This document shows positions 9,404-28,460 of a stretch of 64,000 nucleotides of DNA, in pieces. A model generated the notes under the pieces. It was not told the origin of the DNA, did not search any database, and was given only the letters and a program-made list of their open reading frames with translations. Origin of the DNA: Polaromonas sp. (GTDB lineage: Bacteria; Pseudomonadota; Gammaproteobacteria; Burkholderiales; Burkholderiaceae_C); the NCBI RefSeq assembly GCF_035638815.1, contig NZ_DASQZG010000005.1, forward strand, positions 11,613 through 75,612, read 5' to 3'. A program made the translations under genes and the position numbers. Every line of letters starts with the position of its first letter. Position 1 is the first letter of the stretch.

Positions 9404-9464
9404 CAACACTTGTGCGCGGCCCAGCCGCAGCAGGCCGGTAACTGGCGGGACTAACGATTCAATC

Positions 9465-10142: not shown

Positions 10143-10164
10143 TATATAATCGTGGGCTCAATAG

Positions 10165-10240: not shown

Positions 10241-10352
10241 CTTTCTTTCTCAGTAGGTCCCGAGTCAGCTCACAAGTCTTTGTAGATCAAGGACTTAGCC
10301 TTAAACGGCGGCTCAAGCGGTATCACTGAATCCCAGAACGTCCCGTTCTTGC

Positions 10353-10410
10353 GTGTACCCCTAGGTGTACCCCAGACTGCTTTTTAAATTCAGTCTTTCC
10401 GGGGGTACAC
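10353..10410 (+). promoter_or_regulatory. repeated GTGTACCCC motifs upstream of int (possible recombinase arm or autoregulatory sites)
   Basis: Direct copies at 10353-10361 and 10365-10373. Inverted copy gggggtacac at 10401-10410 abuts the int ATG. An agactg/cagtct inverted repeat flanks an AT-rich centre at 10375-10396. Confidence 0.35.
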
Positions 10411-10411
10411 C

Positions 10412-11731
10412 ATGGGACAGCTCAACGAGCTACAGATCAAGGCGGCGCAGCCGCGCGACAAGGAATACATGCTTTCAGACGGGGAGGGCTTGTACCTGCG
10501 CGTCAGACTCAACGGGAAGGTCTGGATCTACCGCTACAAGCATGCAGGCCAGCAGGCCAAGCTGAGCTTCGGCCCTTATCCAACAGTGACCCTGGCCGTG
10601 GCGCGCAGGAAGGCCCGCGGCGAGGCTGAGAAGCGCGCGGGCGGCATTGACCCCAGGGACGCGCGGCGAGAGCAGTTAGAGCGCGATAGGGTGTCTCGGC
10701 TGAATACGTTCGAGCTGATGGCACGCGCCTGGCATGCCCAAGCGCACCAAGACCGTCAGTGGTCCGCAGGTTACGCCGAAAAGGTAATGCGGCATCTGGA
10801 GTTGCACATCTTTCCGTGGCTGGGCACGTTGATCATGGAGGCTATCAAGCCTACTGAGCTAGTGCGTTGCCTGCATCGTATCAAGGAGCGTGGCAATCTG
10901 GAAACGGCGCAGCGCGTCCGGGAGGCTGTTCAGCATGTCTTTCAGTATGCGGTTGACGTGGGCGCGCTGGACCCTGCCAAAAACTTTGTCAATAGCCGGA
11001 CTGGAGGCTTGCCCGCGCCGCGTGCCCGTCACTACCCGGCTATTACAGATCCCGAGAAGCTGGGCCAACTGCTGCGCGACATTCAAGGGTACAAAGGCCA
11101 TGTCATCACGCGTGCCGCCCTGCAGCTTTCACCGATGCTTTTCCAGCGTCCAGGGCAGTTACGCTTGGCCGACTGGGAGGATATCAATTTTGAGCAGGCC
11201 ATGTGGCGCTGCCCTCCTGAGAAGATGAAGCTTCGCGAGTGGATGAAACGAGACACACGGACGCCAGCACACTTGGTGCCCTTGCCGACGCAGGCCTTAG
11301 AAATCTTGCGTGACATCTATCCACTGACGGGCCCCGCTGGACCAATTTTCCGCAGCATGGCGAAGCGTTCAGAGGCGAGCCGCCATATGAGCGATAACAC
11401 AATCAACAGCGCTTTGCGAACGTTAGGCTACGACACCAGAGAGCAGATCACGGGGCACGGTTTCCGGGCGACGGCCCGGACGCTGATCCGTGAGTTGCTA
11501 GGCTGGGATCGTGAAATCATCGAGCGGCATCTGGCTCACGTTTCCGACGAGGAGCTGGGCGGCAGCTACGACCGAACGACATTCCTAGATCAGCGCCGGA
11601 AGATGATTCAGCTTTGGGCCGACCTGCTGGACGATTTAGCCGCTGGCAAGGCAGTTGCGCTTGCCACGGACCTTCGTCGGTCAACTTCGATTGAAAAATC
11701 CTCGAGCCTACTGGAGGAGGCTGGCGCATAA
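10412..11731 (+). CDS. int: tyrosine integrase, P4-like (DUF4102 arm-binding N-terminus)
   Basis: N-terminus LSDGEGLYLRVRLNGKVWIYRYK...LSFGPYPTVTLAVARRKA. Catalytic region includes GHGFRATART, HLAH and GSYDR (R..HxxR..Y context). Confidence 0.9.
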   Translation: MGQLNELQIKAAQPRDKEYMLSDGEGLYLRVRLNGKVWIYRYKHAGQQAKLSFGPYPTVTLAVARRKARGEAEKRAGGIDPRDARREQLERDRVSRLNTFELMARAWHAQAHQDRQWSAGYAEKVMRHLELHIFPWLGTLIMEAIKPTELVRCLHRIKERGNLETAQRVREAVQHVFQYAVDVGALDPAKNFVNSRTGGLPAPRARHYPAITDPEKLGQLLRDIQGYKGHVITRAALQLSPMLFQRPGQLRLADWEDINFEQAMWRCPPEKMKLREWMKRDTRTPAHLVPLPTQALEILRDIYPLTGPAGPIFRSMAKRSEASRHMSDNTINSALRTLGYDTREQITGHGFRATARTLIRELLGWDREIIERHLAHVSDEELGGSYDRTTFLDQRRKMIQLWADLLDDLAAGKAVALATDLRRSTSIEKSSSLLEEAGA

Positions 11732-12101: not shown

Positions 12102-13031
12102 TCATAGTGCTTGTATGGACTTGGCGAGTTCGCGGGGATCTTTGTAGCCTGGTGCTAACTGGGCATTGTTTGCACCGTACAGCGCGAATGAATCGGGTAA
12201 CCAGAGAGCATATTCGATGCCATTGAGATGATGGTCGGGAGAGCAGTCCACAGACCATCGCCGCAACATATAGCCCGCATTCGCTGCTCGGACCTTTATC
12301 TTTAGTACGTCATCTCTCATGCCGTAATCCATGCACACGAGTCCCGGCCGCGGGTGGCTGGGGTGCGGTACCAGCGCTAAGCTGATGACTCGGCTCCATT
12401 GCTCATCGTCATTCGCCATCTCGCCCTTGCCGGCAGGGCTGTTCTCGAGCGCGACAGGGTTTTCCATCCGATTGAGGACGTAGTCACGGAACTCTTCGTG
12501 GTCTCGGTCATATGCCCGTACGTGCCAGCGAATACCTGTGTCTATGAGTGCGATGGGGACAAGCGTTTTCTCGGTTTTTCCGCTCTTAACCGACGTGTAG
12601 TGGAGCTTGACCGCGAGCTTCCGATTAATGGCCCGGGAAATCGGCGCAAGCACCGCAACGTCAGGAAGAGTAAGTGGCAAAGGAGTGTCGCTTGGAAGCA
12701 TTGCCTCCCAGTCCTCTCCTAATCCTTCCCCAAAGCCTTCGGACAGTGCAGTGAGCACTCGGCGTGCGGAATGTTTGAACAGTGGCTGAAAGTTTGGCGT
12801 CGGCCTGTAAACCTTTTCTGCCGGATCCATTTCGCAGTTCCCGGGAGCGAACCGTCTATACAGCGCGATATCTCGAGTTACACCGGAGGGGCCCATACCA
12901 AAGCGCTCAGCTACATCTTGCCGGCGAAGCTCCCCCAGGAAATACAGCATGAAATCTATGTGTGCCAATCTTTCTTGCTGCGCACGTGGGTGGTCCTTCA
13001 GCTCACGGCTGTCTTCTTCTTTAATGTCCAT
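12102..13031 (-). CDS. HTH-WYL domain transcriptional regulator (CapW/BrxR-like)
   Basis: N-terminal wHTH (QERLAHIDFMLYFLGELRRQDVAERFGMGPSGVTRDIALY). WYL-type core (KLHYTSVKSGKTEKTLVPIALIDTGIRWHVRAYDRDHEEFRDYVLNRM). Divergent from the Ubl operon. Confidence 0.8.
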   Translation of the reverse strand: MDIKEEDSRELKDHPRAQQERLAHIDFMLYFLGELRRQDVAERFGMGPSGVTRDIALYRRFAPGNCEMDPAEKVYRPTPNFQPLFKHSARRVLTALSEGFGEGLGEDWEAMLPSDTPLPLTLPDVAVLAPISRAINRKLAVKLHYTSVKSGKTEKTLVPIALIDTGIRWHVRAYDRDHEEFRDYVLNRMENPVALENSPAGKGEMANDDEQWSRVISLALVPHPSHPRPGLVCMDYGMRDDVLKIKVRAANAGYMLRRWSVDCSPDHHLNGIEYALWLPDSFALYGANNAQLAPGYKDPRELAKSIQAL

Positions 13032-13337: not shown

Positions 13338-13646
13338 ATGAATGCAATCTCTCCTGGCGAGAAACTCGCCCTCAATGCCAACTTGGTGCTTCGCGTCCGG
13401 TACGCGCCGGTGAAGCAACCCTTCGTACAGCCCCAGACGCCGGCCAGCACCACGCTGGCTGCGGCCAAGGCTCTCGCGCTTACGCACTTCGGCTTGACCG
13501 AAGGCGCGGTCGACGGCGGAACGAAGACCTACGAGATCTCGGTCGATGAGACCGTGCAGACCAACCTCAGTCTGACGCTTGGCGAACTGGCCACCCATGG
13601 CCGGCAAATCGAGCTGCTGCTGATCGAGCAGTTCCAGCAGGGCTGA
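13338..13646 (+). CDS. bilA: ubiquitin-like beta-grasp protein ending in Gly (BilA-like)
   Basis: 102 aa; C-terminus ...LIEQFQQG-stop. First gene of the Ubl/E2/JAB/E1 operon; stop is 4 nt before the next ATG. Confidence 0.75.
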   Translation: MNAISPGEKLALNANLVLRVRYAPVKQPFVQPQTPASTTLAAAKALALTHFGLTEGAVDGGTKTYEISVDETVQTNLSLTLGELATHGRQIELLLIEQFQQG

Positions 13647-13650
13647 CGCA

Positions 13651-14088
13651 ATGGCAGCCGAGTACGACCTGGCAACGTTCGAAAGGGACTTTGCCGAGGC
13701 GCTCGAACTGCCGGCTGCATCGCGTTGGAGCCTGGAGAGGGACGTCGACGTCCCTCTCCAGGCAATTTGCACGATGCACCCTCGCAGCGCGCCGCACGAG
13801 TTCTACAGGGTCCGGCTGCGCTGGACCGATTACACGGCGCCGTTTTCCATCAAATTCTTGAGTTTGGAAACCGGCGCCGACAGCGACCAGCACGCCTGGC
13901 CCAACATGGACGGCGCGAACCCGGGCGGGTTTTTTCTGTGCGCACCGTTTAGCAAGGAGGGCAACGACCACCACAAGGAGTGGGAGAGCTCCCCTTCAAT
14001 CCGCTACAGGACGCCGGAGCAGCCGCTGGTTTTTGCCCTGTTGCAACTGCAGTTTCTGCTGGACAACAAATATAGAGGGAGGGGCTGA
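13651..14088 (+). CDS. bilB: E2-like ubiquitin-conjugating enzyme homologue (BilB-like)
   Basis: 145 aa. HPN-like context HAWPNMDGANPGGFFLCAPF with candidate catalytic Cys. Positioned between the Ubl and JAB genes. Confidence 0.7.
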   Translation: MAAEYDLATFERDFAEALELPAASRWSLERDVDVPLQAICTMHPRSAPHEFYRVRLRWTDYTAPFSIKFLSLETGADSDQHAWPNMDGANPGGFFLCAPFSKEGNDHHKEWESSPSIRYRTPEQPLVFALLQLQFLLDNKYRGRG

Positions 14089-14089
14089 A

Positions 14090-14599
14090 ATGGCTCAGAA
14101 AACATGGGACCTGCCGCGCGACCTGCTCGCGCAATCGATCCAGGTTATGCGCCCCTACGGCGCGATCGGTCATGAGGGCTTGGCCCTATGGTTTGGTGAC
14201 GACCGGGGTGATGCGGTGGAGATAACGCACCTGATCGTGCCGCATGGCCCGGGTTTGGTGACGCATCCGTTGCACTTGAGCTTATCGCTGCGGGCCATCG
14301 CGCGGCTCACGGGCCTGTCCGGACGGCTGGATCGCTATTGGGCCGGCCAGATCCACAGTCATCCCGGGGTGGATGTGCGACTTTCAGAAGTTGACAAGAG
14401 GATGGGAGTGCTGGTGCAAGACTACCTCTCCGTGGTTTGCCCGCATTACGCCCAGCAGCCCGTCACCGACCTGCGAGAGTGCGGCATCCACATTTTTGAC
14501 CGCGGTGCCTACCGCCAACTTGCACCAGCGGAAGTGGGCGCGCGCATTCATGTGAGCGAACGTACCGTAGAGGTCGTCCCGGTGGAGGTACCAGCATGA
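14090..14599 (+). CDS. bilC: JAB/MPN (JAMM) metallo-isopeptidase (BilC-like)
   Basis: ATG 14090 after AGGGAGGGG. Upstream Glu (GHEGLALWF) plus exact JAMM motif HSHPGVDVRLSEVD (HxHx7Sx2D). Confidence 0.85.
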   Translation: MAQKTWDLPRDLLAQSIQVMRPYGAIGHEGLALWFGDDRGDAVEITHLIVPHGPGLVTHPLHLSLSLRAIARLTGLSGRLDRYWAGQIHSHPGVDVRLSEVDKRMGVLVQDYLSVVCPHYAQQPVTDLRECGIHIFDRGAYRQLAPAEVGARIHVSERTVEVVPVEVPA

Positions 14600-16134
14600 A
14601 CGCACAGGACGAGACCTTGGTTTCCAGCAGACCAATGGGCGTCGCCGGCGAGCTGGGTGCGAAAGCACTCGAACCAGCGATCGTTTTTGGACGGCAAGTG
14701 ATACTGACGGGTGAGCTGGCGAGCTTGCGGGAGCAAAACGGCCGCTGGTGTTTTCTCGATAGCCTACGCCTGCTTTCGCGAGTGGTTGGCGACCTGACCG
14801 TGGTCCTGCCCGATGAACGCGGCGACTTTCACTTGGAGGTTGACGAGGTCGTTGCCGAACTTTGGAGTCAGGGCCGGGTCCGGCGAATTGGCGCAAAGGA
14901 TTGCGATTTCCTAGGCGCTACGGCCATCTTGAATGTGGGCAACACGGTCCGCCCTGACCTGCCGTGGACCTCCATCAACGCCAATGGTTGGATTGCTCGA
15001 TGCACTTCTGGTTCGAAACCGTTGCCAGAAGGCAGTGCCATCGCCAACCCCTTAGCGTGCATGCTCGCGGCATCGTTTGGCGTAGCGGAGGTTTTCAAGC
15101 GCATCTACGGTGTGCCGCCGCACAAGGCCGCGCCAATGAAGGACGTGGCCTTCTCGCTGTTCGAACTCAGCGTCGAGTTCACCGACTTCGGTCCGAGGCT
15201 TCCGGACTCTATTTCGCTGCCCAACACACTGCTTCTGGGTGCCGGCGCTATAGGCAACGGTATCGTCCTGTTATCGTCGCAGTTGCCGCTTCTTGGCCGG
15301 ATGCTGGTACTGGACAAGCAGGTGTTTGGTCCCGAAAACTATGCCACCTGCGCGCTGCTGGACGTCGCCGACTGGATCGGCAAGCCGAAGGCGAAGCGCT
15401 TGGCCGGGTGGCTAACTACGCGTTCTTGCCTCGCCGTCACGGGCGAGCAAGCCACCGTTCAGAGCGCGATGGACGACGGTCTGCTTGATGGCCTGCGTCC
15501 TGACCTTGTGATCAACGGTCTGGATGACATCGGCGCGCGAAAAGCTGTGCAGAAGGTCTGGCCCTCCTTGCTGGTGGACGGCGGCATTAACTCGGTGGGT
15601 GCAGCGGTTAGGGCGCACAGCATGTCGCACCGCCATCTTGCCTGCATGCGCTGCGCGTTCGTTGACCCTGTCCAGGACCACATCGACGCGCAATCAAGGG
15701 TCACCGGTCTGGCACGCGCTTCGCTCGAAGGCAACCAGGATCGCCCCATTACGGACGAAGACATCGCGCACGCGAGCTCGGAGCGCCGGGAATGGTTGAG
15801 GGCGCAGCAAAGGCAGGGTCGGACGGTCTGTTCTACGATGAACCTGGCGCAAGCCGAAGGGCTCGGGCTGGCGCTGGAGGAGGGCTTCCAGCCATCTGTG
15901 CCCTTCGTGGCCACCGCGTCGGCCGCTCTCGTTATGGCGCACGTTCTTCGCACTTTGTTGTGGCCGCAAATGAAGTTTTTTAGCGGCTTTCAGTTCGAGA
16001 GCGTTTTCGCTGGGGCGGACACGGCCCAGCGCTATAACAAGCTGGCCTCGCCTGGCTGTGAGTGCACGAGGAACAAGGTCATCATTGACACGATCCTGGC
16101 GCGCAGAGACGCCGCAGCATGTAAGGCGCGGTAG
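14596..16134 (+). CDS. bilD: E1-like ThiF/UBA-family adenylating enzyme (BilD-like)
   Basis: ATGA overlap with the JAB gene. Rossmann motif LLLGAGAIGNGIVLL. Cys-containing segments (HRHLACMRCAF, PGCECTRNK). 512 aa. Confidence 0.8.
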   Translation: MNAQDETLVSSRPMGVAGELGAKALEPAIVFGRQVILTGELASLREQNGRWCFLDSLRLLSRVVGDLTVVLPDERGDFHLEVDEVVAELWSQGRVRRIGAKDCDFLGATAILNVGNTVRPDLPWTSINANGWIARCTSGSKPLPEGSAIANPLACMLAASFGVAEVFKRIYGVPPHKAAPMKDVAFSLFELSVEFTDFGPRLPDSISLPNTLLLGAGAIGNGIVLLSSQLPLLGRMLVLDKQVFGPENYATCALLDVADWIGKPKAKRLAGWLTTRSCLAVTGEQATVQSAMDDGLLDGLRPDLVINGLDDIGARKAVQKVWPSLLVDGGINSVGAAVRAHSMSHRHLACMRCAFVDPVQDHIDAQSRVTGLARASLEGNQDRPITDEDIAHASSERREWLRAQQRQGRTVCSTMNLAQAEGLGLALEEGFQPSVPFVATASAALVMAHVLRTLLWPQMKFFSGFQFESVFAGADTAQRYNKLASPGCECTRNKVIIDTILARRDAAACKAR

Positions 16135-16283
16135 GGTCATTGGCCTTGTGGGGCTGACGGGGGTTAGCCCCGTGCGAAAGTGCGTCATGCGGACCTGCTC
16201 GCTACACGCGACGAATTGCGCCAACCGCTCTGTCGCCGCCATGCCGGAGCTACGTAAGGTCGCAGCCCGCGCTCGGCTAGCCA

Positions 16284-17480
16284 GTGGCCATTGAGCGTCG
16301 TGAGAAACGAAGCCCTACGACGCTGGCGCCGGGCATTACACTTGCAGGCTGGCCCAACCCCTACATGCGTCCACTCGCCTACAACCCAAAATACGCGCTC
16401 AACGCCATCTGTCCTTACTTCACGATGTTTCCGCTGGAGTACCCGCTAAGGGTACTTAGGAAGCATCGCAAGGATGCTCCGGTGGTGATTGACCCGTTCT
16501 GTGGTCGTGGCACGACGTTATTTGCAGCGCGGGCAATGGGACTTAAAAGTTGGGGAATCGATGCATCGCCCGTTGCGGTGGCGATTGCCAGGGCCAAGCT
16601 TTCCAATGCGACGGCCGATGAGGCGCTGAGCCTCGCTGGTTTCCTCGTTGCTGGGGTCAGGCCTGCGCACACGCCGAACAGTAAATTCTTCAGGAAAGCT
16701 TTTCACAAAAACACGCTTCGCGGCATTTGCGCCCTGCGAGAAGGGCTGAGTGCGGGCCTTCAGGACACTGATGCTTCAGTTCTCCTGCGGGCAGCTGTAC
16801 TGGGCTGCTTACACGGCCCCCTTTTGAAGAGCGGTCTGGCCTCGTATTTCTCGAATCAGATGCCGAGGACATTTGCGCCGAAGCCAGACTACGCGCTGAA
16901 GTTTTGGAGCGCGCGTCACATGGAGCCTCCCGAAGTGGATGTGCTCAAAGTACTCGAGCGAAAACTAAAGCTCATCGCCTCTTCGCGGGAACTGCAGAAG
17001 GCGCGCTTCACCAATGTGATCCACGGAGACTCCACCGTGGCCGCGTCATTGCCCAAAAAACGCGACTACTCATTGGTCGTGACCTCACCGCCTTACTACG
17101 GGATGCGTACCTATGTTCAGGACCAATGGCTGCGCAATTGGTTCTTGGGAGGGCCCGCGACAGTTGATTACGCAGCGGGCGTCCAGCTCGAGCACACCGG
17201 TACCGATGTGTTTGCCGAGTCGCTTGGCAAAGTGTGGAAGAACATGGCACGCACCGAAGCGGACACCCTCGACTTGTACGTGCGTTTTGGTGTGATTCCT
17301 TCGGCGAAGGTGGACGCTAAAGAGCTTGTCGAACGTTCGCTGGAAGCCGCGAATTCAGGTTTGCGCGTACTGTCTTGGCGCAACGGTCTTTCTGCGACTT
17401 CCGGCAAACGGCAGGCAGATCAGATGAAGGCGGATTCAGGAGCTTGTGACGAGTTCGACTTCCATATCGTTCGCCACTGA
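16284..17480 (+). CDS. DNA amino-methyltransferase (N6-adenine or N4-cytosine)
   Basis: SAM motif I DPFCGRGTT near the N-terminus and catalytic motif IV TSPPYYGMRTY about 195 aa later. Start uncertain (GTG 16284 or ATG 16365; no clear RBS). Confidence 0.75.
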   Translation: MAIERREKRSPTTLAPGITLAGWPNPYMRPLAYNPKYALNAICPYFTMFPLEYPLRVLRKHRKDAPVVIDPFCGRGTTLFAARAMGLKSWGIDASPVAVAIARAKLSNATADEALSLAGFLVAGVRPAHTPNSKFFRKAFHKNTLRGICALREGLSAGLQDTDASVLLRAAVLGCLHGPLLKSGLASYFSNQMPRTFAPKPDYALKFWSARHMEPPEVDVLKVLERKLKLIASSRELQKARFTNVIHGDSTVAASLPKKRDYSLVVTSPPYYGMRTYVQDQWLRNWFLGGPATVDYAAGVQLEHTGTDVFAESLGKVWKNMARTEADTLDLYVRFGVIPSAKVDAKELVERSLEAANSGLRVLSWRNGLSATSGKRQADQMKADSGACDEFDFHIVRH

Positions 17481-18683
17481 GGCGGTCGATTGCTTCCTGC
17501 CAGCATAGGCGCGAACCAGTCCATCGAGGCTGCAATGAAGTCCAGCGGCCTTTAACCGTTTCTTGCGCTTGCTGAACAATGTCGCAAGGAGCGGTTGCTT
17601 CTCGGCCGGCGTGCCGCGGTGGATTCGCGCGTGGCACATCGGGCACAGCGCCACCACATTGGCGGGCACGTCAAGACTGGCGTGTGAGTACCGATGCTGA
17701 TGGTGGAGCGGGATGACGTGATGCGCCTCGACATAGTGCCTATGAGTCGAGGCGGCTATGAACAGCTGATTCCCGCAATCAGCTTCGCATGTGTGCTCAA
17801 CGGAAACGATAGCTGTTGCTGCAACGGAAGGATCCCGGTCGTAGACGGTGACCCACGTCGATCGCTTTGGTGGTGGAGGAACGGGAATGTCATACAAGGG
17901 CCCGCTGAGCTGAAGCTTCGCCGCGCGCTCTACCACTTCCGCTTGGAATATGGCTTCGTTCATTCGACCTCGTGCCTCGGCAATGCCGGCCAAATCGCCG
18001 GCTACTCCGGAGGGTATTGCCGCATACACATCCAGGATCTTCTCAACGGCATTCCGCAGGTCCACTGGAAAATTTGAGTCAATGGATGCGAGGTCGAACT
18101 TGCGGCTCAGGATGGCGCCGCGTTCGTAGGCTTTCCCATACCGCATCCTCGCGGAGAGCTCGATCCGGCCAGGTGCAAAGCCCTGAGGGGCCGGCAGACC
18201 ATCGGCGGTTTCGCCGGCAACCAATTCGACCGCTTCCAATACTTCGAGTCCCTCGAATCGATTCTCGAACTGCGCAATCCCTTGGTTGAGCGAGAGCCAC
18301 AGCGATTTGCAATTCTCATCGAACAGAAACGCCAGATACACCCCGCGCGTGGGCGTGGTCGTCACATCCTTGCGCATGACCATCACGTAAGGGATGAGGG
18401 TGTAGCGGCGACCCTTTTGGCCGGCGGAGGCCTTGATCGAAAGGGAGGGGTGATCTCTGACGGCGGACTCTATCCAGCCCTTGATGCGGTGCTCCAAGGC
18501 AACGACCGACGCCGGCGCCATCGCATCATGAAAGCGCATCGCTTTTGTAACCCGTCCTTCATTGTTGCGCCCTCCGGTGTCCAGTACGTACTGATCACGA
18601 ACGACCTGAACAGCGGCGAGGAACGCAATGTCCGCGACTTCGCCATCATCAGTCGAAATGGACATGGCATAACCCTTGTTCAT
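17436..18683 (-). CDS. DUF3578 (McrB-N-like DNA-reader) - HNH endonuclease
   Basis: DUF3578 signature KASAGQKGRRYTLIPYVMVMRKDVTTTPTRGVYLAFLFDENCKSLWLSLNQG. C-terminal HNH: YVEAHHVIPL...NVVALCPMCHARIH. Alternative start ATG 18665 has a better RBS (AAGGG). Confidence 0.8.
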   Translation of the reverse strand: MNKGYAMSISTDDGEVADIAFLAAVQVVRDQYVLDTGGRNNEGRVTKAMRFHDAMAPASVVALEHRIKGWIESAVRDHPSLSIKASAGQKGRRYTLIPYVMVMRKDVTTTPTRGVYLAFLFDENCKSLWLSLNQGIAQFENRFEGLEVLEAVELVAGETADGLPAPQGFAPGRIELSARMRYGKAYERGAILSRKFDLASIDSNFPVDLRNAVEKILDVYAAIPSGVAGDLAGIAEARGRMNEAIFQAEVVERAAKLQLSGPLYDIPVPPPPKRSTWVTVYDRDPSVAATAIVSVEHTCEADCGNQLFIAASTHRHYVEAHHVIPLHHQHRYSHASLDVPANVVALCPMCHARIHRGTPAEKQPLLATLFSKRKKRLKAAGLHCSLDGLVRAYAGRKQSTASVANDMEVELVTSS

Positions 18684-18692
18684 GAAATTCTG

Positions 18693-21600
18693 TCATCCAT
18701 GCCAACGAGCTTCTACGACGCGAGTGCCACCGCCAACCAAATTCACAACGTGCGTCGAACGCTTGTTGCAAAAGGATTCGAGATATGACTTGATGGCTTT
18801 TGCGGTTTTCAAGGTTTTTCGTTCACTGGGCAGGTGGAATGCCAGCGACTTCGGCATGATTACGATGCATTTCGCTTGAGCCCGAGAGACGGAAACGTTG
18901 ATGCGTTCCAGTTGCAAAAGGAAAAATTCCTCGCCGGCGATGATGTCTACATCACCAACTCCGAATGACACGATGATTGTCTGGCGCTGACCTCCCTGAA
19001 ACTTCTCCACGGTATCAACCGCTTCAGCGATGTCGTTGCGAGTCAGCAGCGGAAAAAGCGAAGATAGCTCGGAAATAATGAGCGCTCGTTGCGCCTTATG
19101 GGGCGTGACGATACCCACTACATTCTCAAGAAGCTCCTTAGGCGTGGGAGCGGCATGCAGCTTCCCAGCATTGAGCGGTTCGAGCTGGGTCGACATGGTC
19201 TTGTACAAACCCCACACCAAGGCCGCGACCATCTTCGCTTCGTGCAGGTTCGCTTGCGAGGCCGTGTCATCTTCATGGATAAGAGTACAGACTGCCTTGC
19301 CGGGAGCGAGCAGAGTTTCCCATGCGTCAGAGGTTGGTAGTGAAGCTGGAAGTCCAGCCATTGCGGCCTTGATGTCGAATAGCTGATGCAATCGCAAGGT
19401 GGGCTGAGCTGATGTGAGCTTCGGAGGATAGTCCAGTGTGAGGGCGAAGTCGACGATGTCTTGATTTGACCGGTAGTTGGTTAGCAGTGGAAGCTCCGCC
19501 ACATTGAAACGCTCGGTGAAATAAGCTTGAATGCTGCCAACGAGATACTCCGAGCCGACCGGGGGATCCAAAGCAGCGATTGGCGGCATTTGCTTCGTGT
19601 CGCCAGCGATGATGAGTTGACTTTCGTCCTTCAGGGTGGCGAGTGGCAAAAGGGCGAGCGTGACAGGGACTTGTGAACTCTCGTCAATAATCGCGATGTC
19701 GAACACGGGGGCAAGAACTGCGACTGCGTCGGCGAGCTCTGCAACTTTTCGGGAAGCATGTGCAGAGGTCGCCACCAGGGTGACGCGCTGGTCAGATAGC
19801 AGACTCGTTCTCAACTGTGCGTATGAAGGTGTTCCTTGCCTTAACGACACGTTCGCGCCGGCAATGTGCGCGGGAAGCAATGGTGAGGGGGGCAATTCGC
19901 GCGACTTCGAGTACGCTCTGAAGAAATCGCATGCAGCGCCACATTGCATGGCCAGAACGCCGAGCGCACGATCCGCCAGCTCCTCAACTGCCCGGTAGTT
20001 CGGACCAGTCAGGAGGACTTTGAGTGGCTTCTTCGCTTGGTTGGCTTCGAGCACCATTGCTGCCACCATCGCAGCCAAGGTGTCGGTCTTGCCCGTGCCT
20101 GGCGGTCCCCAGATCAAGCTTAAGGCGGCTCGCGCAGCGCCTTTAACAGCGTCGTATTGGCTATCGTTGAGCGGTGGGTTCGAGATACCTTTGGCGACAT
20201 TCGCGAGTGTGGTTGCGGCAACCGGTGTACGTCGTGCAGTCTTGGCGAGAGAAGTTGCATCCCACAGTATTTGCGATAGCGTTGTCTGAGGCCCAGTTCC
20301 GGATTTGACGGCCTTTCCCGCCTTGCCAAGAGCCTGAATAGCGTTAGGGTCTGGTTTGGCGTTTTTGGGGTCACCTACGGCATTGAGGACCTCGTCTATT
20401 TCACGCGTTGGATCGTAGGGTGGGCCTTGCAAGAGATACAGGCGCTCAGAAGCAATATTGACCACAGTCGGATGCATGGCTGCGGTAAACAAAGCATCTA
20501 CCCCGGGCCAACTCGCTGCAAACTCCACTTCGGCCAGGCCGGTGGTTCGGTCGAGGGACAGTAGTTGGGCACGAACGATTCTGTGCATCGCAATACCCAA
20601 AACCTTTGCTTCCAAGCTAGGGTCGATCGCCTGAAGGTCGAGGGAGTAACCGTTTTCGAGTGGGAAACCAGGCCGGCTCTCCACGCCGAGCGTGAGGTAA
20701 GCGTTCGGGGCTTCGATCTTCGCTTCAAGAGAGTCAGGACTCACCTTGAATCGGTAGCGTCTGCCCCCGAGATGACTCAACATCTGATCGAGGACGATTG
20801 CTTCGTATCTCGATTCCAGCCCTTCAAGTGGAGCTGCCAAGGCGGCACCAGCCAAAGTGACGGCGGTGGCATGGTCCAACGCGGCCCAACGAGCCCAGAG
20901 TTGTGAATCAAAGGCCAGCGACTTCGAAGTCCCAACCCCGGACAGTTTCAGTCGGCTCACCTTCCCTTTGATCGATGCCTTGAAGTCATGGTCTAGCCGT
21001 GCAACGATGGAGGTCAAGCTATAAGCCATTCCCCGAAGGTGCTTGCAATATCGATCCACGGCGTCGGATAGGCTTTGCTTGTAGGTAGCCCCCCACTCAA
21101 CCACACCGCTTGTGTTTGTCCAGATCTCGAACGTTCGCTCGCGTGGAATTCCGTTTGAAAGCGGCTCTGAGTGAAAGCTGTCGAACTTCAGAGGCGGCAG
21201 GGAAGTGTGCGAGTACTCTCGATTCGTTGCCAGGAGCGTGTAAACGTGTGGCACGGGCAAGTGCATCGCCAGTTCCACGACTTCTTGGATGAATACGATT
21301 GCCGGTGACACGGCGCCGTCTTCTCGCTCTAACAAGGCCTCGGCGGGAAAAAGCCAGGCAAGCGCTCGCTGTTTGGTGTCTTTCAGACCTAACACTCGGG
21401 GAAGATGTCGGCCGAACGCTTTGCACAGCTCCTCGTATTGCCTGAACTCCCAGAAGTAGATTTGTGCGTAGGGCAACTTGGGACTTGCGACCCCGGGTTC
21501 TGCCAACGAAGCCGCCTCCAAGGCGCTGCTAGCCAAGTCATCAATGAACTTGCTCAGCATCATCCATTCCGCATCGTCGTTGTCCCGCTCGACCATATGC

Positions 21601-22961
21601 CCTGTGTATTTCAGATGCGTGAGCGTCCCTGCGCTGCCCCATTTCGGTAGGTAGTCGGCTCGATATCCAATGCCAGTAAGCCGACCTGCCGACGGATCGA
21701 AAGTCACGACCACACTGGCTCGCAGCTCCACACCTTTGCCGATGGTATTGAGCTTGACCGAAGGGCCCACGGCGGCCAGATTGGTGATGAGCGACCCAGC
21801 TCGGCTCGCGAGCGAGTTGCGGTTGCGCTTAAGGAAGGAGTGCTGCGAAAAGGTGGGTGCTGTGGGAGCAAGGGTTTTTAACGCGTGGACGTTCTTGGTT
21901 CCACTGTTCTCCAGCACACGCCGTGCGCCTCGCGAGAGGCTGGCAATCTGGCTCAGGTGACCGGATCCCTTCGCTGCGGGCACGCAGTATCTGTCAGGAC
22001 TTGCATTGAAAATAGCCAAGTCGGCGGGTGACAACCAGTCCTGGAAGCCCAGCCAATCACAAGCGTTGCAGCGATTCCCGACGTGGTAGTCAACGGCCTG
22101 CCATCCGGCCTTGTCGCCAAGCCGCACTACGCGCGGTACGTCCTCCGCAAAGAACTTCTTGACGCTGGGCATGAACTGCAGAAAGTCCACTTCCTCTTTG
22201 CTCAGGTCCCGGACGAGCGCATGGATCAGATCTGATTTGAGTGCAGTGGGTTGCGCTTTGTACAAAGCGTCGAACTCCGTGAGAAAAGGTGTCGTCCAGA
22301 GGTACGTTTTCTCAGACACGTAGTACTTATCCTCCAGGCCATGCGCCTCAAGCCAATTCGCCAGGATGACGGCGTACATGCAGACCTCCGCCGCATAGCT
22401 CGCATTGCCCTCGGTGACATTCTTAAGATCTATCACGCAGAGCGCTTGGCGGGTATCCCCTGGCTCGATGCGCTTGCGGCCTCCGCTGCACGTTGCCTGC
22501 CACTCCCCTGGCGATGCGGCATCCACCAGCACAATGTCAGGGCGCATACCGGACAGTGGTGGGATGAGGTGCTGATCTCCTGGGGCGACGCTCAAATTGT
22601 CAAAGATCCGCTGGCGAAGCGGTTCAGGCTCAATGGCAGGCTGAATGCACAGAGTTGTCCCGGTGATCGTGGGCAGCTCTTTCAATAAGTCGACGTCCGC
22701 GAAGTTGGGTCGATGTCTTACCTCTTTGCCCAGCCTTGTGACAAGCATCTGGAACTGGTCTTTTTCGAACCGGTCACCGGCACCGGTCACTAGCTGAACG
22801 TTTTGACGCGATTTCAGGGGTGCAGGCAGCCCCGCCGCGGCAATCTCTGCTGGTTTGCCTCTAAATAAAGACAGATACAGTTCCCGATCGCACTGGGTGC
22901 GCAGGAACATGGAAAGCTTCGATTTCGACAAGTGCCTGGGTGGCATCGGTACTGTTGTCAA
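18693..22961 (-). CDS. 1422-aa fusion: N-terminal Cas4/RecB-like PD-(D/E)xK nuclease, central region (possibly degenerate RNase H-like), C-terminal Upf1/Dna2-like SF1B helicase
   Basis: TTG start 8 nt after AGGAGG. Nuclease motifs MRPDIVLVD, CVIDLKNV, YAAEVCMYAV plus Cys cluster (QCDRE, NRCNACDW, RYC). Helicase motifs GPPGTGKT, IIDESSQV, GDTKQMPP, TNYRSNQDIV, VTPHKAQ, VEKFQGGQRQTIIVS, NVSVSRAQAKCIVI. Confidence 0.8.
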   Translation of the reverse strand: MTTVPMPPRHLSKSKLSMFLRTQCDRELYLSLFRGKPAEIAAAGLPAPLKSRQNVQLVTGAGDRFEKDQFQMLVTRLGKEVRHRPNFADVDLLKELPTITGTTLCIQPAIEPEPLRQRIFDNLSVAPGDQHLIPPLSGMRPDIVLVDAASPGEWQATCSGGRKRIEPGDTRQALCVIDLKNVTEGNASYAAEVCMYAVILANWLEAHGLEDKYYVSEKTYLWTTPFLTEFDALYKAQPTALKSDLIHALVRDLSKEEVDFLQFMPSVKKFFAEDVPRVVRLGDKAGWQAVDYHVGNRCNACDWLGFQDWLSPADLAIFNASPDRYCVPAAKGSGHLSQIASLSRGARRVLENSGTKNVHALKTLAPTAPTFSQHSFLKRNRNSLASRAGSLITNLAAVGPSVKLNTIGKGVELRASVVVTFDPSAGRLTGIGYRADYLPKWGSAGTLTHLKYTGHMVERDNDDAEWMMLSKFIDDLASSALEAASLAEPGVASPKLPYAQIYFWEFRQYEELCKAFGRHLPRVLGLKDTKQRALAWLFPAEALLEREDGAVSPAIVFIQEVVELAMHLPVPHVYTLLATNREYSHTSLPPLKFDSFHSEPLSNGIPRERTFEIWTNTSGVVEWGATYKQSLSDAVDRYCKHLRGMAYSLTSIVARLDHDFKASIKGKVSRLKLSGVGTSKSLAFDSQLWARWAALDHATAVTLAGAALAAPLEGLESRYEAIVLDQMLSHLGGRRYRFKVSPDSLEAKIEAPNAYLTLGVESRPGFPLENGYSLDLQAIDPSLEAKVLGIAMHRIVRAQLLSLDRTTGLAEVEFAASWPGVDALFTAAMHPTVVNIASERLYLLQGPPYDPTREIDEVLNAVGDPKNAKPDPNAIQALGKAGKAVKSGTGPQTTLSQILWDATSLAKTARRTPVAATTLANVAKGISNPPLNDSQYDAVKGAARAALSLIWGPPGTGKTDTLAAMVAAMVLEANQAKKPLKVLLTGPNYRAVEELADRALGVLAMQCGAACDFFRAYSKSRELPPSPLLPAHIAGANVSLRQGTPSYAQLRTSLLSDQRVTLVATSAHASRKVAELADAVAVLAPVFDIAIIDESSQVPVTLALLPLATLKDESQLIIAGDTKQMPPIAALDPPVGSEYLVGSIQAYFTERFNVAELPLLTNYRSNQDIVDFALTLDYPPKLTSAQPTLRLHQLFDIKAAMAGLPASLPTSDAWETLLAPGKAVCTLIHEDDTASQANLHEAKMVAALVWGLYKTMSTQLEPLNAGKLHAAPTPKELLENVVGIVTPHKAQRALIISELSSLFPLLTRNDIAEAVDTVEKFQGGQRQTIIVSFGVGDVDIIAGEEFFLLQLERINVSVSRAQAKCIVIMPKSLAFHLPSERKTLKTAKAIKSYLESFCNKRSTHVVNLVGGGTRVVEARWHG

Positions 22962-23579
22962 TTGCCTTTCCTCCTTTGGGCCCCATCAGCACGTTCGCAT
23001 CGAAGCTGGCGCTCAGTGTACTGCCACGTTGCATTCGCTTACACGACTGACAGGGGCGAGTGAATGCCGCTGGGTGTTCGCCGTCAGCCCGCTTTCATTC
23101 CACTATTGCGCCTCCCAATGGCTTCCCTCCTGCAATTAGAGGAGGTCGGCAATACCGCCTACTAAAGAGCGCTTTGTTTGTATGCTCGTGGCTTGTCTAC
23201 TATGGGTAATAAGGATGTTCATGCGAAGCCCAACCGCAGTGCCGCCGAAGGCCCCAACCTTCGAGCGCCAGTATCCGCGCCCGGTCACTAGAAAGCGCCG
23301 CGGCGCATGCAATGGTCACTAGCTTGGCCAACAAGGTCAAGATACGGCAGGATTCTCGGGTGCGTCGATAGTTGCGAAAAATTGCCGAGCAATAAACCGT
23401 GAGAGAAATCCGCCTCTACTGGGCCGACCATGTAGGTCATCATGAAGACCAACTAAGGAGCGGTGGCATTTGGATCCCAGTAAGCGAAGCAGCGCCGCGA
23501 CCTTCAAATTGTCACTGAGGCTGGCAACGAGATCTACGGCGCTGGCTCGCATTTGGCGGAATAACGCGAGGCGTAGAAC

Positions 23580-24359
23580 CTAAACCTGCTTGGCCAGGAA
23601 TTCTGTGAAGGTGGAAAAAGAGCGCTGTCCTTTTGCAGTATTAAGTTTGGCCAAGATTGTCTTGGCAATGCGCTGTTGCAGATAGGCGCACAGCGGTTCA
23701 AACTTCTCAATGGGCAGCAGCTTCCACGGCGACCCGAACTGAGTTTCAATATTCACTGACAGGACTCCGTAGCTGAACTTTTTAGTCCGGGTCTTGTCGG
23801 CACTTGCAAATTCGTTGTACCGCTTGATCAAATACTGCACGTAGCGGCTCAACTGCTGGTCCGCACCGATCGTGCCGTGTGGCGCATTCACCAGAACAGA
23901 ACGACGGCTGGTCTTCACAGTGACTGTATGGGCCTGTATCGCTCCAGGACTGTTGATCGCGACATAGCCCGTGTTGTTGATGACAGTGATTCGCTTCAGA
24001 TCATTTAAAAGAATTTTCGCGAAGAAGGCGTCAGTTGGTTGCTCGGGCCGACCCGCAACGCCCTCGTGAATGGTTTTTATTTCCTGAAGGGCATCGACGC
24101 TGTAAAGCTCTGGCTCGGAATCCACAACCTTGTGATGATGTCTGCATAAAAGGATCAGGTTGGCGAAGTCATGTCGAGCCTCCTCAGCTTGCGCAGGATC
24201 AAACCGAGGGCCTCCATGTCTTCTGGCTTTGATGTGGCAGATTTCCCCGGTTACGGTGCCGGCGCTCTCAACAATGGGAAGCGCGCAGCCGGGATAAGCG
24301 CAAACATTGCCGGAAAGCGCGAACAGGCGCTTGATGGTCTTGTCGCTAGGTTCTGCCAA
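23580..24359 (-). CDS. HNH endonuclease with uncharacterised C-terminal domain
   Basis: N-terminal HNH core: NVCAYPGC...EICHIKARRHGGPR...NLILLCRHHHKVVD. Confidence 0.75.
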   Translation of the reverse strand: MAEPSDKTIKRLFALSGNVCAYPGCALPIVESAGTVTGEICHIKARRHGGPRFDPAQAEEARHDFANLILLCRHHHKVVDSEPELYSVDALQEIKTIHEGVAGRPEQPTDAFFAKILLNDLKRITVINNTGYVAINSPGAIQAHTVTVKTSRRSVLVNAPHGTIGADQQLSRYVQYLIKRYNEFASADKTRTKKFSYGVLSVNIETQFGSPWKLLPIEKFEPLCAYLQQRIAKTILAKLNTAKGQRSFSTFTEFLAKQV

Positions 24360-24503
24360 TCAGGTTCCTGGGGTTTGGGTGGGAGGATGTCAATCATGAT
24401 GTGCCTTCGCCACTCTCACGGACTTTTGTTTGCAAGGCAGCCCACAGCCATTCTGCGGTTAATAGGCTCGACGTAAATACTACACTGGGCTTAGGAGATT
24501 TTC

Positions 24504-24800
24504 ATGGTCATATCAACCCTCACTATCGACATCAACAAGGATGCGCCTGGCGTTTACACCGCTCATGCTATGAATGGAGACGTTCTAGTGACCGATCCAA
24601 ATAGCTACGATCGAATTGAGGCTGCGATTCGAGGGGAGGCGAGTAATATTCCGGAGGCGTTTGCCTGCTTTGTGGTTTTCACCTACGGTGGAATATCGAC
24701 AGGAACCCTGACCATTGCCGAAGCGATTGCACGCGCGTCCCAGCTTGCTGACCGCCTTATCGAACTAATTGCCGAAGAGCATCGACTTATGGGGCGCTGA
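24504..24800 (+). CDS. hypothetical protein (98 aa)
   Basis: ATG preceded by AGGAG. Divergent from the HNH gene and 30 nt upstream of the next ORF. No motif recognised. Confidence 0.5.
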   Translation: MVISTLTIDINKDAPGVYTAHAMNGDVLVTDPNSYDRIEAAIRGEASNIPEAFACFVVFTYGGISTGTLTIAEAIARASQLADRLIELIAEEHRLMGR

Positions 24801-24830: not shown

Positions 24831-26117
24831 ATGGCTGGTGCTAGCAAAAAGTTGGGGCTTAAGAAGATCAAAGACCGCTTGTTGATTCCTGGCGACATCA
24901 TTCTTACAACAACCAGGGATGTGTTGAGTGCGGCAATTCGAGTTGCGACCTTTGGCGATATTTCCCATGCGATGGTTTGCGTGGACGATAGCAGCGTGAT
25001 TGATGCGACGGGCGAAGGAGTTCACGCGCGAAACGTGCAGCGACTGTTGTTTGATGAGAACTATCCAGTTCATGTGTTGCGTCTTCGCACTCCACCCTCC
25101 GCCACACAGTTGAAAATAATTGATCAGTTTCTCCGCGGAAACATTGGAACGCAGTATTCAAAGGTAGCGGCGGCGCAATCCCTCTTCGGGGGTGGGCTTG
25201 TAAGCAGAAAACAATTTTGCTCCCGGCTGGTGGCACAGGCATTCGCCTTGGCTGGCATCCAATTGGTGGATCAGTCGGACTTCTGTTTTCCCGTAGAAAT
25301 TCTACGGAGCCCACTTTTGATCGAGATCTCTGACTCGACTCAACTAATCACCCTTGGCGAAGCAGCTGCCTGGGAGGGCGTCGAAGATGTCCCGCAATTA
25401 ATGCGTGACGCCATCAACGCAGTGCTAAAGGCTGCACGTTCGTTGTCCGACAAAATTCAAACTTTTGACGACATTCACGCCTATCTGATAGCCCACCCCC
25501 ACGAAGACACTTTTATGTCGGAGGCTCTAGCAGCGTCTGGATACCTATCTGTTTGGCAAGTGGAGGCCAACAAAAATCCCTGGCAGTATCAAGATGCCCT
25601 GTTAAACGATGTGCCCGAATCTGAAGCAAGGAAGTACTGCCTTCGCTTGATTGAAAGTGAATCGGATGGGCCCCACCGGTTCGTAGTGAATCGAGGAGCT
25701 TATGTTGCACTTCACGCATTACATAGGCTTCATTTCTTCGCGGCACTCATGGATTTGTACGAACTCCTTGCCGAACAGCATCGAACCCGCATCAATGTAG
25801 CGACGCATTGGTTGAATTCTCGCGGGCTACTTGATCTTGAGAACGTGCGACCGGTCCGTCCTCATTCTGCGGAGTGGTTTGAACAGTTGGAAATCTGGAA
25901 TCCCCCTCAAGCCGCGATGACTCGACAAGTCACTAACCTATCGGGAGGCTTAGAGGTTTGTTCGGTATGCGGCGATGATCCTGCAAGTGACTACATGCTC
26001 GTGGAAGGAGCTCCCGCCGGTGGTCCGGGAACCCTGAGACTTTGCGATTTTTGCGTGCGACATCGACGCAATTCGATGGGGGACTTGTTCGTTCCTTTTC
26101 CGGAAGAAATACCATAG
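24831..26117 (+). CDS. permuted papain-fold (YiiX/YaeF C92-like) peptidase domain protein with C-terminal zinc ribbon
   Basis: His-before-Cys order (GDISHAMVCV ... QFCSRLVAQAF) typical of permuted NlpC/P60-PPPDE-like folds. C-terminal CSVCG...LCDFC (CxxC-N-CxxC). RBS GAGGA. Confidence 0.6.
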   Translation: MAGASKKLGLKKIKDRLLIPGDIILTTTRDVLSAAIRVATFGDISHAMVCVDDSSVIDATGEGVHARNVQRLLFDENYPVHVLRLRTPPSATQLKIIDQFLRGNIGTQYSKVAAAQSLFGGGLVSRKQFCSRLVAQAFALAGIQLVDQSDFCFPVEILRSPLLIEISDSTQLITLGEAAAWEGVEDVPQLMRDAINAVLKAARSLSDKIQTFDDIHAYLIAHPHEDTFMSEALAASGYLSVWQVEANKNPWQYQDALLNDVPESEARKYCLRLIESESDGPHRFVVNRGAYVALHALHRLHFFAALMDLYELLAEQHRTRINVATHWLNSRGLLDLENVRPVRPHSAEWFEQLEIWNPPQAAMTRQVTNLSGGLEVCSVCGDDPASDYMLVEGAPAGGPGTLRLCDFCVRHRRNSMGDLFVPFPEEIP

Positions 26118-27623: not shown

Positions 27624-27884
27624 AGGTAAATCATACTGTACATCCATACAGTTCGCAAGTACCATGGCTTGCCATTTAGATACCAGAGCACGAAGCATGA
27701 GTCCCTCCCCCCACCTCCGCGCAGCCATTCAAGCTGCGCCTCCATTTCTACCGCCGCGCCCGGTGCGCACCCTGGTCTGGCCTTTCATCATCGGCCGCAA
27801 GCCAGCGGCTGTTTGTCCCATTCGTGCCCGCGCTGCAGCGGTCATCGCCACCACCGCCAGGCACTGGTTATCCTCTGTCGAGTC

Positions 27885-28460
27885 ATGACAGTCGGCTATT
27901 CACTTGCCTTGTTTTCTCGCCCTTTCGCAGAGCGGTCCTGGACCCGCCCATCCCGCATGTGGATCGGCTTGATCCTGGCGATTGGCTCGCTGGTGGCCAG
28001 CGCAGGAACCATCACCGGAAAGGTTGTGGGCGTGACCGATGGCGACACCCTCACGGTCCTGGATGCGAACGATCAGCAGTTCAAGATCCGCTTGTCTGGC
28101 ATCGATGCGCCTGAGAGAGGACAGCCTTTTGGAAACCGGGCCAAGGAATCACTAAGCGAGATGGTGTTCAACAAACAGGTGGTTATCGAATTCAGCAAGG
28201 AGGACCGGTACCGGCGCAAGGTCGGCAAGGTACAGCACGAGGGCACGGACGTGAATCTTGAACAGGTCAAGAAAGGAATGGCCTGGCACTACACCGCCTA
28301 TGCGAAGGAGCAAGCGCCGGCAGATCGCGAAGCGTATGCGAGTGCCGAAGCAGAGGCCAGGGCTCAGCGCCGCGGCCTCTGGCGGGAGCCCATTCAGGCG
28401 GCGCCGTGGGAGATTCGGCGGATCAAGGCCGCAGTCCGGGAAGTGCCCGAAAGGAATTAA
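27885..28460 (+). CDS. thermonuclease (staphylococcal nuclease-like), membrane-anchored or secreted
   Basis: ATG 27885. N-terminal hydrophobic segment, SNase blocks GKVVGVTDGDTLTVL, IRLSGIDAPE, GMAWHY. Confidence 0.85.
   Translation: MTVGYSLALFSRPFAERSWTRPSRMWIGLILAIGSLVASAGTITGKVVGVTDGDTLTVLDANDQQFKIRLSGIDAPERGQPFGNRAKESLSEMVFNKQVVIEFSKEDRYRRKVGKVQHEGTDVNLEQVKKGMAWHYTAYAKEQAPADREAYASAEAEARAQRRGLWREPIQAAPWEIRRIKAAVREVPERN

Follow-up and report, generated by a model that had tools for sequence, protein, structure and literature searches.

Bad, the bacterial DNA2-like helicase-nuclease of Geobacillus stearothermophilus, joins an N-terminal iron-staple nuclease of the RecB family, a central domain without assigned function and a C-terminal superfamily 1B (SF1B) helicase (Wilkinson et al., NAR 2020, PMC7430649). 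It is a monomer with an iron-sulfur (Fe-S) cluster that binds junctions of single-stranded (ss) and double-stranded (ds) DNA, acts as an ssDNA endonuclease and unwinds more than 4 kb processively in the 5'-3' direction at ~200 bp/s (PMC7430649). In Geobacilli the bad gene always adjoins a gene for a methyltransferase related to type III Mod, and the authors of that work proposed a new class of restriction enzyme (PMC7430649). Here we analysed a stretch of 64,000 nucleotides (nt) from a metagenome-assembled genome of Polaromonas sp., called the window below, in which an original prediction made from the sequence alone had picked out two adjoining genes, A and B, as a candidate undescribed defence module. 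We found that A is, by its sequence, a distinct and larger branch of the Bad/DNA2-like superfamily, and that it is accompanied by a methyltransferase (methylase) gene at nearly every locus assessed. We read the locus (Table 1) tentatively, as close to an even call, as a three-gene defence module of restriction-modification (R-M) type on an island resembling an integrative and conjugative element (ICE), with A and the methylase as its core and B as an accessory. We infer the defence function of the module, its methylation-based discrimination of self from non-self and the role of B; the biochemical activities proposed for A are carried over from Bad by analogy.

Table 1. Features of the module and its surroundings in the window (positions counted from the first nucleotide of the window)
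Feature	Position	Strand	Remarks
tRNA-Phe	10164-10239		start of island
Tyrosine integrase	10412-11731		
WYL/BrxR-like regulator	12102-13031	-	
Candidate BilA and BilB open reading frames	13338-13646, 13651-14088	+	no Pfam or NCBIfam match
BilC-like open reading frame	14033-14599	+	weak match, 2.7e-6
BilD-like E1 gene	14596-16134	+	PADLOC BilD, E 1.9e-23; Pfam ThiF
Methyltransferase	16365-17480	+	~371 amino acids (aa) from ATG 16365; reading frame opens at GTG 16284
Gene B	17436-18683	-	415 aa; ATG 9 nt past TGA of A
B residues 302-357, HNH nuclease core	17613-17780	-	Pfam, PADLOC, alignment to McrA
B residues 72-222, MrcB_N (DUF3578/ADAM) DNA-reader domain	18018-18470	-	Pfam PF12102, E 5.7e-24
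Gene A	18693-22961	-	1422 aa; TTG start at 22961-22959, stop TGA
A residues 931-1422, SF1B (Upf1/DNA2-like) helicase	18693-20171	-	Pfam, PDB sequence matches
A residues 641-930, helical stalk and beta-barrel before motor	20172-21041	-	AlphaFold, weak Foldseek
A residues ~395-640, central domain with RNase H-like strand order	21042-21779	-	AlphaFold, weak Foldseek
A residues 1-345, iron-staple-type PD-(D/E)xK (RecB/Cas4-like) nuclease	21927-22961	-	motifs, AlphaFold, Foldseek, blastp
AGGAGG ribosome-binding site	22975-22970	-	8 nt 5' of TTG of A; sequence inspection
Second HNH gene	23580-24359	-	just upstream of A, same strand
YaeF/C92 permuted papain-like peptidase	24831-26117	+	
Staphylococcal-nuclease-domain protein	27669-28460	+	SNase, 4.9e-26; PADLOC C3a212 'SNc+LTD'
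RepA	33909-35009		
DUF3363/MobA-type relaxase	37334-39397		

The relationship of A to Bad is seen at the profile level. The A family aligned collinearly with nine Bad-like proteins, residues 7-1418 of A against 5-1315 (hhalign, probability 100%, E-value 7e-82, 1194 aligned columns). A direct blastp comparison with one Bad-like protein, the 1273-aa product of an open reading frame (ORF) of Methanoculleus chikugoensis (L010; L numbers label individual loci throughout), matched both the helicase (E-value 4e-25) and residues 6-434 of A with residues 1-362 of L010 (E-value 3e-10). The L010 protein has D148-x-K150, a Cx2Cx5C cluster and Walker K819, nearly matching D150 and K815 of Bad, and the taxa of its family (Methanoculleus, Methanohalobium and Candidatus Competibacter) are taxa listed as sources of Bad proteins in the supplement of PMC7430649. 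At NCBI this family is named 'bifunctional RecB family nuclease/DEAD/DEAH box helicase', and some of its members match Pfam PDDEXK_1 or Cas_Cas4. The nuclease, cysteine and helicase motifs are all common to A and Bad-type proteins: in the alignment, E66, D142, D178-x-K180 and E192xxxY196 of A fall on the corresponding residues of Bad-type proteins and C24, C298, C301 and C326 on their cysteines, but the third cysteine lies 24 residues past the CxxC pair in A (Cx2Cx24C) and 5 residues past it in Bad (Cx2Cx5C).

Bad and the locus in the window thus share a full-length collinear profile match, all catalytic motifs and an adjoining DNA methyltransferase gene. They differ in that A is 100-150 residues longer and only ~19% identical at the profile level, in the RecB motif (QxxxY in Bad, ExxxY in A), in the partner enzyme, which is type III Mod-like for Bad and a small (~370 aa) permuted SPPY enzyme for A, and in the extra HNH gene B, present in one sub-lineage of A loci. 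The pair of A and methylase is an uncharacterised variant of the pair of Bad and methylase hypothesised in 2020 as a restriction class; it is not categorically new. The label 'undescribed' can therefore be kept for the three-gene form and has to be dropped for the A family, which has already been studied as Bad, with its methyltransferase neighbour noted (PMC7430649). More distant relatives came from a genome scan with a full-length A alignment. The scan keyed on generic helicase motifs, and 65 of its 66 loci held unrelated SF1 helicases; some of its loci were later recognised as Bad-like (L002-L019). At L019 (Fibrella aquatilis, 5268-10396) a distant Bad-like gene (1388 aa) is directly followed by a D12-class (Dam-like) N6-adenine methylase, which is a third, independent methylase class beside a Bad-type helicase-nuclease. 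The neighbours at L002 and L003 are UvrD/PD-(D/E)xK/NERD helicases instead of a methylase.

Both ORFs of the original prediction, the TTG start, the AGGAGG 8 nt upstream of it, the 9-nt junction and all of the quoted motifs are present, on the minus strand, which had not been stated. The exact A protein is in the public collection as NCBI WP_324883934.1, annotated 'ATP-binding protein'. A public protein 100% identical to B (P0121, 409 aa) begins at M7, so the true start of B may be position 18665. The domain reading of both proteins also stood, with the SF1B helicase supported by Pfam, the nuclease by its invariant residues and the Bad profile, and B by MrcB_N and HNH matches. In A, Pfam AAA_11 (2.6e-19) and AAA_12 (1.8e-17) are confined to residues 931-1368. 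There was no Pfam match in residues 1-900 of A, nor in the N-terminal 640 residues of nine diverse A-family members even at an E-value of 5, and a profile search with this N-terminal 640-residue region found no match among PDB sequences. The motor carries GPPGTGKT (952-959, with Walker A lysine K958), DESSQ (1093-1097), GDTKQMPP (1120-1127) and YRS (1163-1165), followed by the C-terminal set TPHKAQ (1286-1291), FQGGQR (1321-1326) and VSRAQ (1358-1362). Among PDB sequences it is matched by IGHMBP2 (1.6e-13), DNA2 (5eax, 1.5e-12), Upf1 and Sen1.

The nuclease domain contains MRPDIVLVD (139-147) and CVIDLKNV (175-182). D142, D178-x-K180, E192xxxY196 and the cysteines 24, 298, 301 and 326 are invariant among 101 homologues; further key residues of the domain, E66 and Q107, are invariant in the homologues and are found in Bad-like proteins too. 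AlphaFold models, built from an alignment of the window fragment with database proteins, had a predicted local distance difference test (pLDDT) score of 89 and a predicted template modelling score of 0.85 for residues 1-935 and a pLDDT of 93 for residues 1-355. A Foldseek search of the PDB with the 935-residue model gave no match below an E-value of 0.25. The top PDB match of the 355-residue nuclease model was the Cas4-family protein ACE1 (E-value 0.14), and its matches in the Foldseek viral library were nearly all PD-(D/E)xK, RecB-like, Cas4 or DUF2800 proteins (best E-value 3e-3). Matches of the N-terminal fold to Cas4/RecB-like structures are thus weak but consistent, none reaching an E-value of 0.001 or less, and the Cas4-like label therefore rests mainly on the motifs and the match to the Bad-type profile.

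The central domain has an RNase H-like strand order in the AlphaFold model, invariant acidic residues (D422, E465, E505 and D594), an FWExRQYEELC motif and, at residues 501-512, the sequence IYFWEFRQYEEL quoted in the original prediction. Weak Foldseek matches link it to RNase H1, Argonaute PIWI, Hermes and EndoV, and D422 and D/E505 are kept in Bad-like proteins. The prediction had likened this region to the RNase H-like part of TM0106-type RecB nucleases; the RNase H-like part of that claim agrees with the strand order and the weak Foldseek matches, while NCBIfam detected no relationship to TM0106. Residues 641-930 are the most variable part of the protein, with a poorly defined consensus, and weakly match beta-barrels and Setx (8ftm); the model suggests that a stalk and a beta-barrel precede the motor, as in Upf1/DNA2-like helicases. 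In eukaryotic DNA2 (5eax), too, a PD-(D/E)xK nuclease, which carries an Fe-S cluster there and is predicted to do so in A, is followed by a stalk, a beta-barrel and an SF1B motor. However, DNA2 serves in replication and repair together with RPA and lacks a methylase partner. The RNase H-like central domain is an addition in A, whose N-terminal region has no sequence match to DNA2.

Our reading also rests on the linkage of A to the methylase. A metagenome scan with an N-terminal-only A alignment yielded 80 family-specific loci. We scored the presence of the methylase and of B by tblastn with A, B and the methylase of the window and at loci added later, which together gave 76 unique complete A genes outside the window, 75 of them assessable for the methylase. 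A methylase homologue (41-94% identity) lies beside A in 74 of these 75 loci, within 200 nt in 66. All eight loci with a wider gap hold an HNH gene in between, and the sole locus without a methylase has an IS21 element inserted directly after A. The methylase is a near-obligate partner of A and so belongs to the module; the conserved unit is A plus methylase, and the original drawing of the module as A and B with an optional methyltransferase has to be given up. The pair occurs in three layouts, with the methylase downstream and convergent, downstream and co-directional, or upstream and co-directional. The full trio of A, an MrcB_N-HNH gene and a convergent N6_N4 methylase is also found beside a 93% identical A homologue; in A homologues at 44% identity the convergent methylase directly follows A, and B is missing. 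In loci with two genes only, A and the methylase overlap by 4 nt, and at one locus (L134, 11239-13606) A is followed by two paralogous methylases, one convergent with it and one divergent.

In the methylase, motif I (DPFCGRGTT) precedes motif IV (TSPPYYGMRTY), so that the motifs are permuted when compared with Pfam N6_N4_Mtase; motif I and the SPPY of motif IV are invariant among the homologues. SPPY is commoner in N4-cytosine enzymes. The best PADLOC match is the type II model MTase_II (1.2e-19), and NCBIfam offers no name. In the window the methylase and B are convergent and their 3' ends overlap by 45 nt (17436-17480), and such convergent overlapping transcription might regulate the methylase and its neighbour. 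A promoter and terminator scan of positions 16000-24600 gave no signal above chance and no terminator-like site at the overlap. Methylase homologues (34-48% identity) were also seen on IMG/VR contigs (L174-L176, L178-L181 and L183-L185) that carry neither an A gene nor a Bad-like gene within 6 kb of them. These could be phage counter-defence methylases or lie on mis-called mobile elements; one of their neighbours resembles a phage ATP-dependent DNA ligase, and no match to the methylase was found in cultured phages.

Protein B combines its MrcB_N reader with an HNH core (Pfam HNH_2 9.6e-6, HNH 5e-4; PADLOC mREase_IV 3.9e-9) that has CxxxC...CxxC zinc ligands and an HH...N...H signature and is closest to E. 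coli McrA (EcoKMcrA, 6ghc; E-value 2.2e-7), followed by ScoMcrA and TagI. It shares the McrA-type core and the MrcB_N reader with type IV enzymes (McrA, ScoMcrA, TagI and McrB-N proteins), but neither the McrA nor the McrB prototype joins the two in one chain as B does, and members of the B subfamily, unlike these enzymes, always follow a helicase-nuclease gene and come with a single methylase clade. Of 29 detectable relatives of B, those at 41-85% identity lie 9-15 nt after A on the same strand in eight of eight loci, with the convergent methylase beyond. That A and B would be conserved neighbours thus proved correct within this subfamily; across the A family B is missing from ~90% of loci, including the closest B-less relative of the A in the window (L073).

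The A-B pair had been interpreted as a McrBC-like enzyme with an SF1B helicase in place of the GTPase motor and the DUF3578-HNH protein as site reader and cutter, the methylase being separate or optional. The tight same-strand pairing of the two genes, possibly translationally coupled, their adjacency in all eight loci of the B subfamily and the lack of both an AAA+ GTPase or McrC gene and a fitting named system speak for it. We nevertheless consider it very unlikely. The idea is weakened because A keeps an intact nuclease next to B (its nuclease and ATPase motifs are intact in every B-bearing locus) and because the large majority of A loci, nearest relatives included, have no B, whereas the methylase is the universal partner; the model accounts for the A-B pair but not for the universal methylase or the B-less majority. 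Moreover, B tracks the methylase subtype and not the A lineage, and a modification-dependent cutter beside a methylase would have to ignore the mark of that methylase. A search of A and B for AAA_5/McrB GTPase and McrC gave no match, so that the MrcB_N reader is all that the locus has in common with McrBC.

The tracking of the methylase subtype is seen when trees are compared. A neighbour-joining tree of A places the loci with B in two clades far apart, between which A is only 39-40% identical. The methylases of B-bearing loci, seven in all, share 71-94% identity and group in a single clade that holds no others. Four B-bearing loci (L151, L152, L160 and L162) have methylases 71-74% identical to that of the window despite A proteins at 39-40%. 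Conversely, L073 has an A 66% identical to that of the window and a methylase at 60% that belongs to another clade. B thus co-segregates with the methylase subtype and not with the A lineage. In the mechanism that we propose for the module, the methylase, an amino-methyltransferase with an SPPY catalytic motif, would mark resident DNA, with m6A or m4C as the candidate products. A, presumably a monomer like Bad, would load at ss/ds junctions or DNA ends, move 5'-3' along one strand at the expense of ATP and cut the displaced strand with its Fe-S PD-(D/E)xK nuclease, and unwinding and cutting together would destroy unmarked invading DNA. B, in which a McrB-N-type base-reading domain is joined to a McrA-like HNH nuclease, would be co-transcribed with A in loci with one methylase subtype only. 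Most likely it would either provide a modification-dependent, type IV-like arm against phages with otherwise modified DNA or make the initial break that gives A its loading site.

A stronger version of our reading is that A and the methylase form a previously unvalidated ATP-dependent R-M class, built on a DNA2-like SF1B helicase and an Fe-S nuclease. In its three-gene form B would be a functionally integrated subunit adapted to a single methylase subtype, which might, for instance, read methylation and make the loading break. The strict adjacency of A and B and the co-segregation of B with the methylase argue for integration, and we hold this version to be possible but on the doubtful side. 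A comparably doubtful alternative is that B is an independent type IV enzyme embedded in an A-methylase locus without mechanistic cooperation with A. Defence genes are known to nest in R-M and BREX (bacteriophage exclusion) loci. The concept of embedded defence genes has been published (bioRxiv 10.1101/2024.01.29.577857). A McrB-N reader joined to a McrA-like HNH would suit such an enzyme, and so would the nuclease motifs that A keeps for itself beside B. Embedding is further suggested by solitary relatives of B, by other genes in its slot and by the B-less majority of loci. In a third A clade (L113, 11345-12208, plus strand) the slot between A and the methylase is taken by an unrelated 287-aa protein with an N-terminal HNH and weak IscB-like and mREase_IV matches, copies of which at L110 and L111 are cut by an insertion sequence (IS) element. 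On the other hand, relatives of B at 41% identity or more occur only directly after A (eight of eight loci, 9-15 nt), across A proteins as far apart as 39-40% identity and always with one methylase clade, and free embedding predicts other contexts too.

Several observations weigh against the reading of the locus as an R-M-like module with B as its accessory. Relatives of B at 30-34% identity stand alone in mobile or defence contexts, with resolvase, integrase, QatB or AIPR genes nearby, and some are annotated McrA. At L162 (7206-9824) a HEPN_RiboL-PSP and GmrSD_N pair and a small ORF are inserted between B and the methylase, at a junction that looks like a site where further defence genes land. 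The trees of A and methylase disagree, so the two lineages recombine freely, and the conservation of the methylase is flat, with no hypervariable target-recognition region among 64 methylases; both features are uncommon in classical R-M systems, whose specificity diversifies. The more distant Bad-like genes often have no methylase neighbour, and since L019 is the only one among them that does, the link is not universal across the Bad superfamily. Bad itself requires a pre-existing ssDNA overhang and is inactive on intact or nicked duplex (supplement of PMC7430649). In the literature we came across no later study in which Bad or one of its relatives was tested for defence, and searches on PLuB, later Bad work and SF1B/Fe-S/methylase defence systems found no characterisation.

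Some of these points would suit a non-immune role, in which A and the methylase process or maintain mobile-element DNA (DNA2/AddAB-like resection or repair, processing of transferred ssDNA, or an addiction pair) and the methylase is a regulator or an anti-restriction orphan. The activities of Bad are DNA2-like and start from an overhang, the methylase is uniformly conserved without a variable specificity region, several loci lie in ICE or plasmid backbones near relaxase, SSB or ArdC genes, distant Bad-like genes have housekeeping neighbours, and solitary methylase homologues are present on some viral-called contigs. Yet the distribution of A is patchy and horizontally spread, defence genes stand directly beside the pair in many unrelated loci, the locus also houses embedded HNH, GmrSD and HEPN genes, and the nuclease is almost always linked to the methylase, often convergently, in the manner typical of R-M systems. 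We therefore regard a non-immune role as unlikely.

The distribution itself was assessed in several collections. There are 249 full-length homologues of A (~1400-1450 aa), all annotated generically, in hosts that include Proteobacteria, Nostoc (Cyanobacteria), Bacteroidia (Bacteroidota) and Bryobacteraceae (Acidobacteriota). When 1.84 billion representatives were searched with a profile of the N-terminal region, the family proved compact, with 463 clusters at 50% identity, nearly all 1400-1500 aa long. None of 50,697 cultured phage genomes carries A, and only 3 of 72,556 plasmids do. Elsewhere the A-methylase pair has as neighbours Kiwa (on a Tn7-like element), Hachiman, CBASS (cyclic-oligonucleotide-based anti-phage signalling system), BrxR, BREX PglZ/BrxL, GmrSD, a type III R-M system, an anti-phage dGTPase, HEPN proteins, integrases and Tn7-like genes. 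Taken together, distribution and neighbours are circumstantial evidence, the signature of a horizontally moving defence gene.

We compared the locus with the established R-M types. A nuclease gene linked to a methyltransferase with intact catalytic motifs, here in 74 of 75 loci, is a generic R-M feature, and type I, type III and ISP (single-polypeptide) systems likewise combine an ATP-dependent motor with a PD-(D/E)xK nuclease and an N6_N4 amino-methyltransferase and reside in defence islands. Their motors, however, belong to superfamily 2 (SF2) and translocate or switch without unwinding DNA, whereas the SF1B helicase of A would, like that of Bad, unwind it, and their methylases have variable target-recognition domains, which the methylase in the window does not. 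Membership in type III was rejected on the same grounds (SF1B instead of SF2) and on the methylase, which is ~370 aa long with MTase_II as its best PADLOC model.

Scans of A and B with PADLOC-DB v2.0.0, NCBIfam release 20 and Pfam-A (DefenseFinder was not run) found no named system that fits, in agreement with the original prediction. All matches to A are on the motor and, for PADLOC and NCBIfam, far under the curated cut-offs; the best were DpdJ (3.5e-43), MkoC (9.6e-24) and MkoA (1.2e-22) in PADLOC, and the IGHMBP2 family, PLuB helicase-like, ProA and Hhe in NCBIfam. Nhi, Mokosh (MkoA/MkoC), DpdJ and Hhe have an Upf1-like SF1B helicase in common with A, but the matches cover only residues 927-1417 or 1231-1368 and the N-terminal 900 residues match none of them. 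Mokosh was rejected, with Mko matches only at A 1231-1368 and no PLD domain at the locus. So was Dpd, for which the DpdJ match spans model positions 43-497 of 2112, the helicase only, with no dpd genes among the neighbours. Hhe, ProA and PLuB were rejected as homes of A, their matches being confined to helicase motifs. The Nhi model was not among the PADLOC or NCBIfam matches, its presence in those versions being unconfirmed, and A differs from Nhi in its linkage to a methylase. Because none of the three collections names it, the A family has probably been missed in defence censuses.

Should the A-methylase pair turn out to restrict foreign DNA, it would constitute a new mechanistic R-M class, in which an unwinding SF1B helicase is fused to an iron-sulfur nuclease as in eukaryotic DNA2, in place of the SF2 translocases on which types I, III and ISP rely. 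Bad, whose single-molecule biochemistry has been worked out in detail but for which no function is known, would thereby also gain a biological role. The pair is a well-defined, testable candidate for such a class, and the three-gene form raises the question of how a modification reader coexists with, or depends on, a particular methyltransferase.

The surroundings of the module match the predicted context, with a BilD-like gene on one side, an HNH gene on the other, and tRNA-Phe, integrase, RepA and relaxase genes along an ICE-like element. The order is tRNA-Phe, integrase, WYL/BrxR-like regulator, Bil-like genes, methylase, B, A and second HNH gene, then RepA and relaxase. A repeat of the 3' end of tRNA-Phe, sought as the far boundary of the island, was not found in the window. 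The plus-strand genes at 13338-16134 resemble, by sequence, a Bil (ubiquitin-like conjugation) defence operon, and its two small upstream ORFs could be BilA and BilB. The staphylococcal-nuclease-domain protein and the YaeF/C92 peptidase may be island cargo, since they lie in the lowest-GC stretch of the window (~0.52). The N-terminal 100 residues of the second HNH protein match PADLOC PDC-M68A (2.2e-28), CBASS HNH effectors and the N-terminus of SduA. A homologue of this protein (46% identity) is encoded 3 kb upstream of A at L128, where a HEPN_RiboL-PSP and GmrSD_N pair also lies upstream of A, and at L154 a BrxR gene precedes A.

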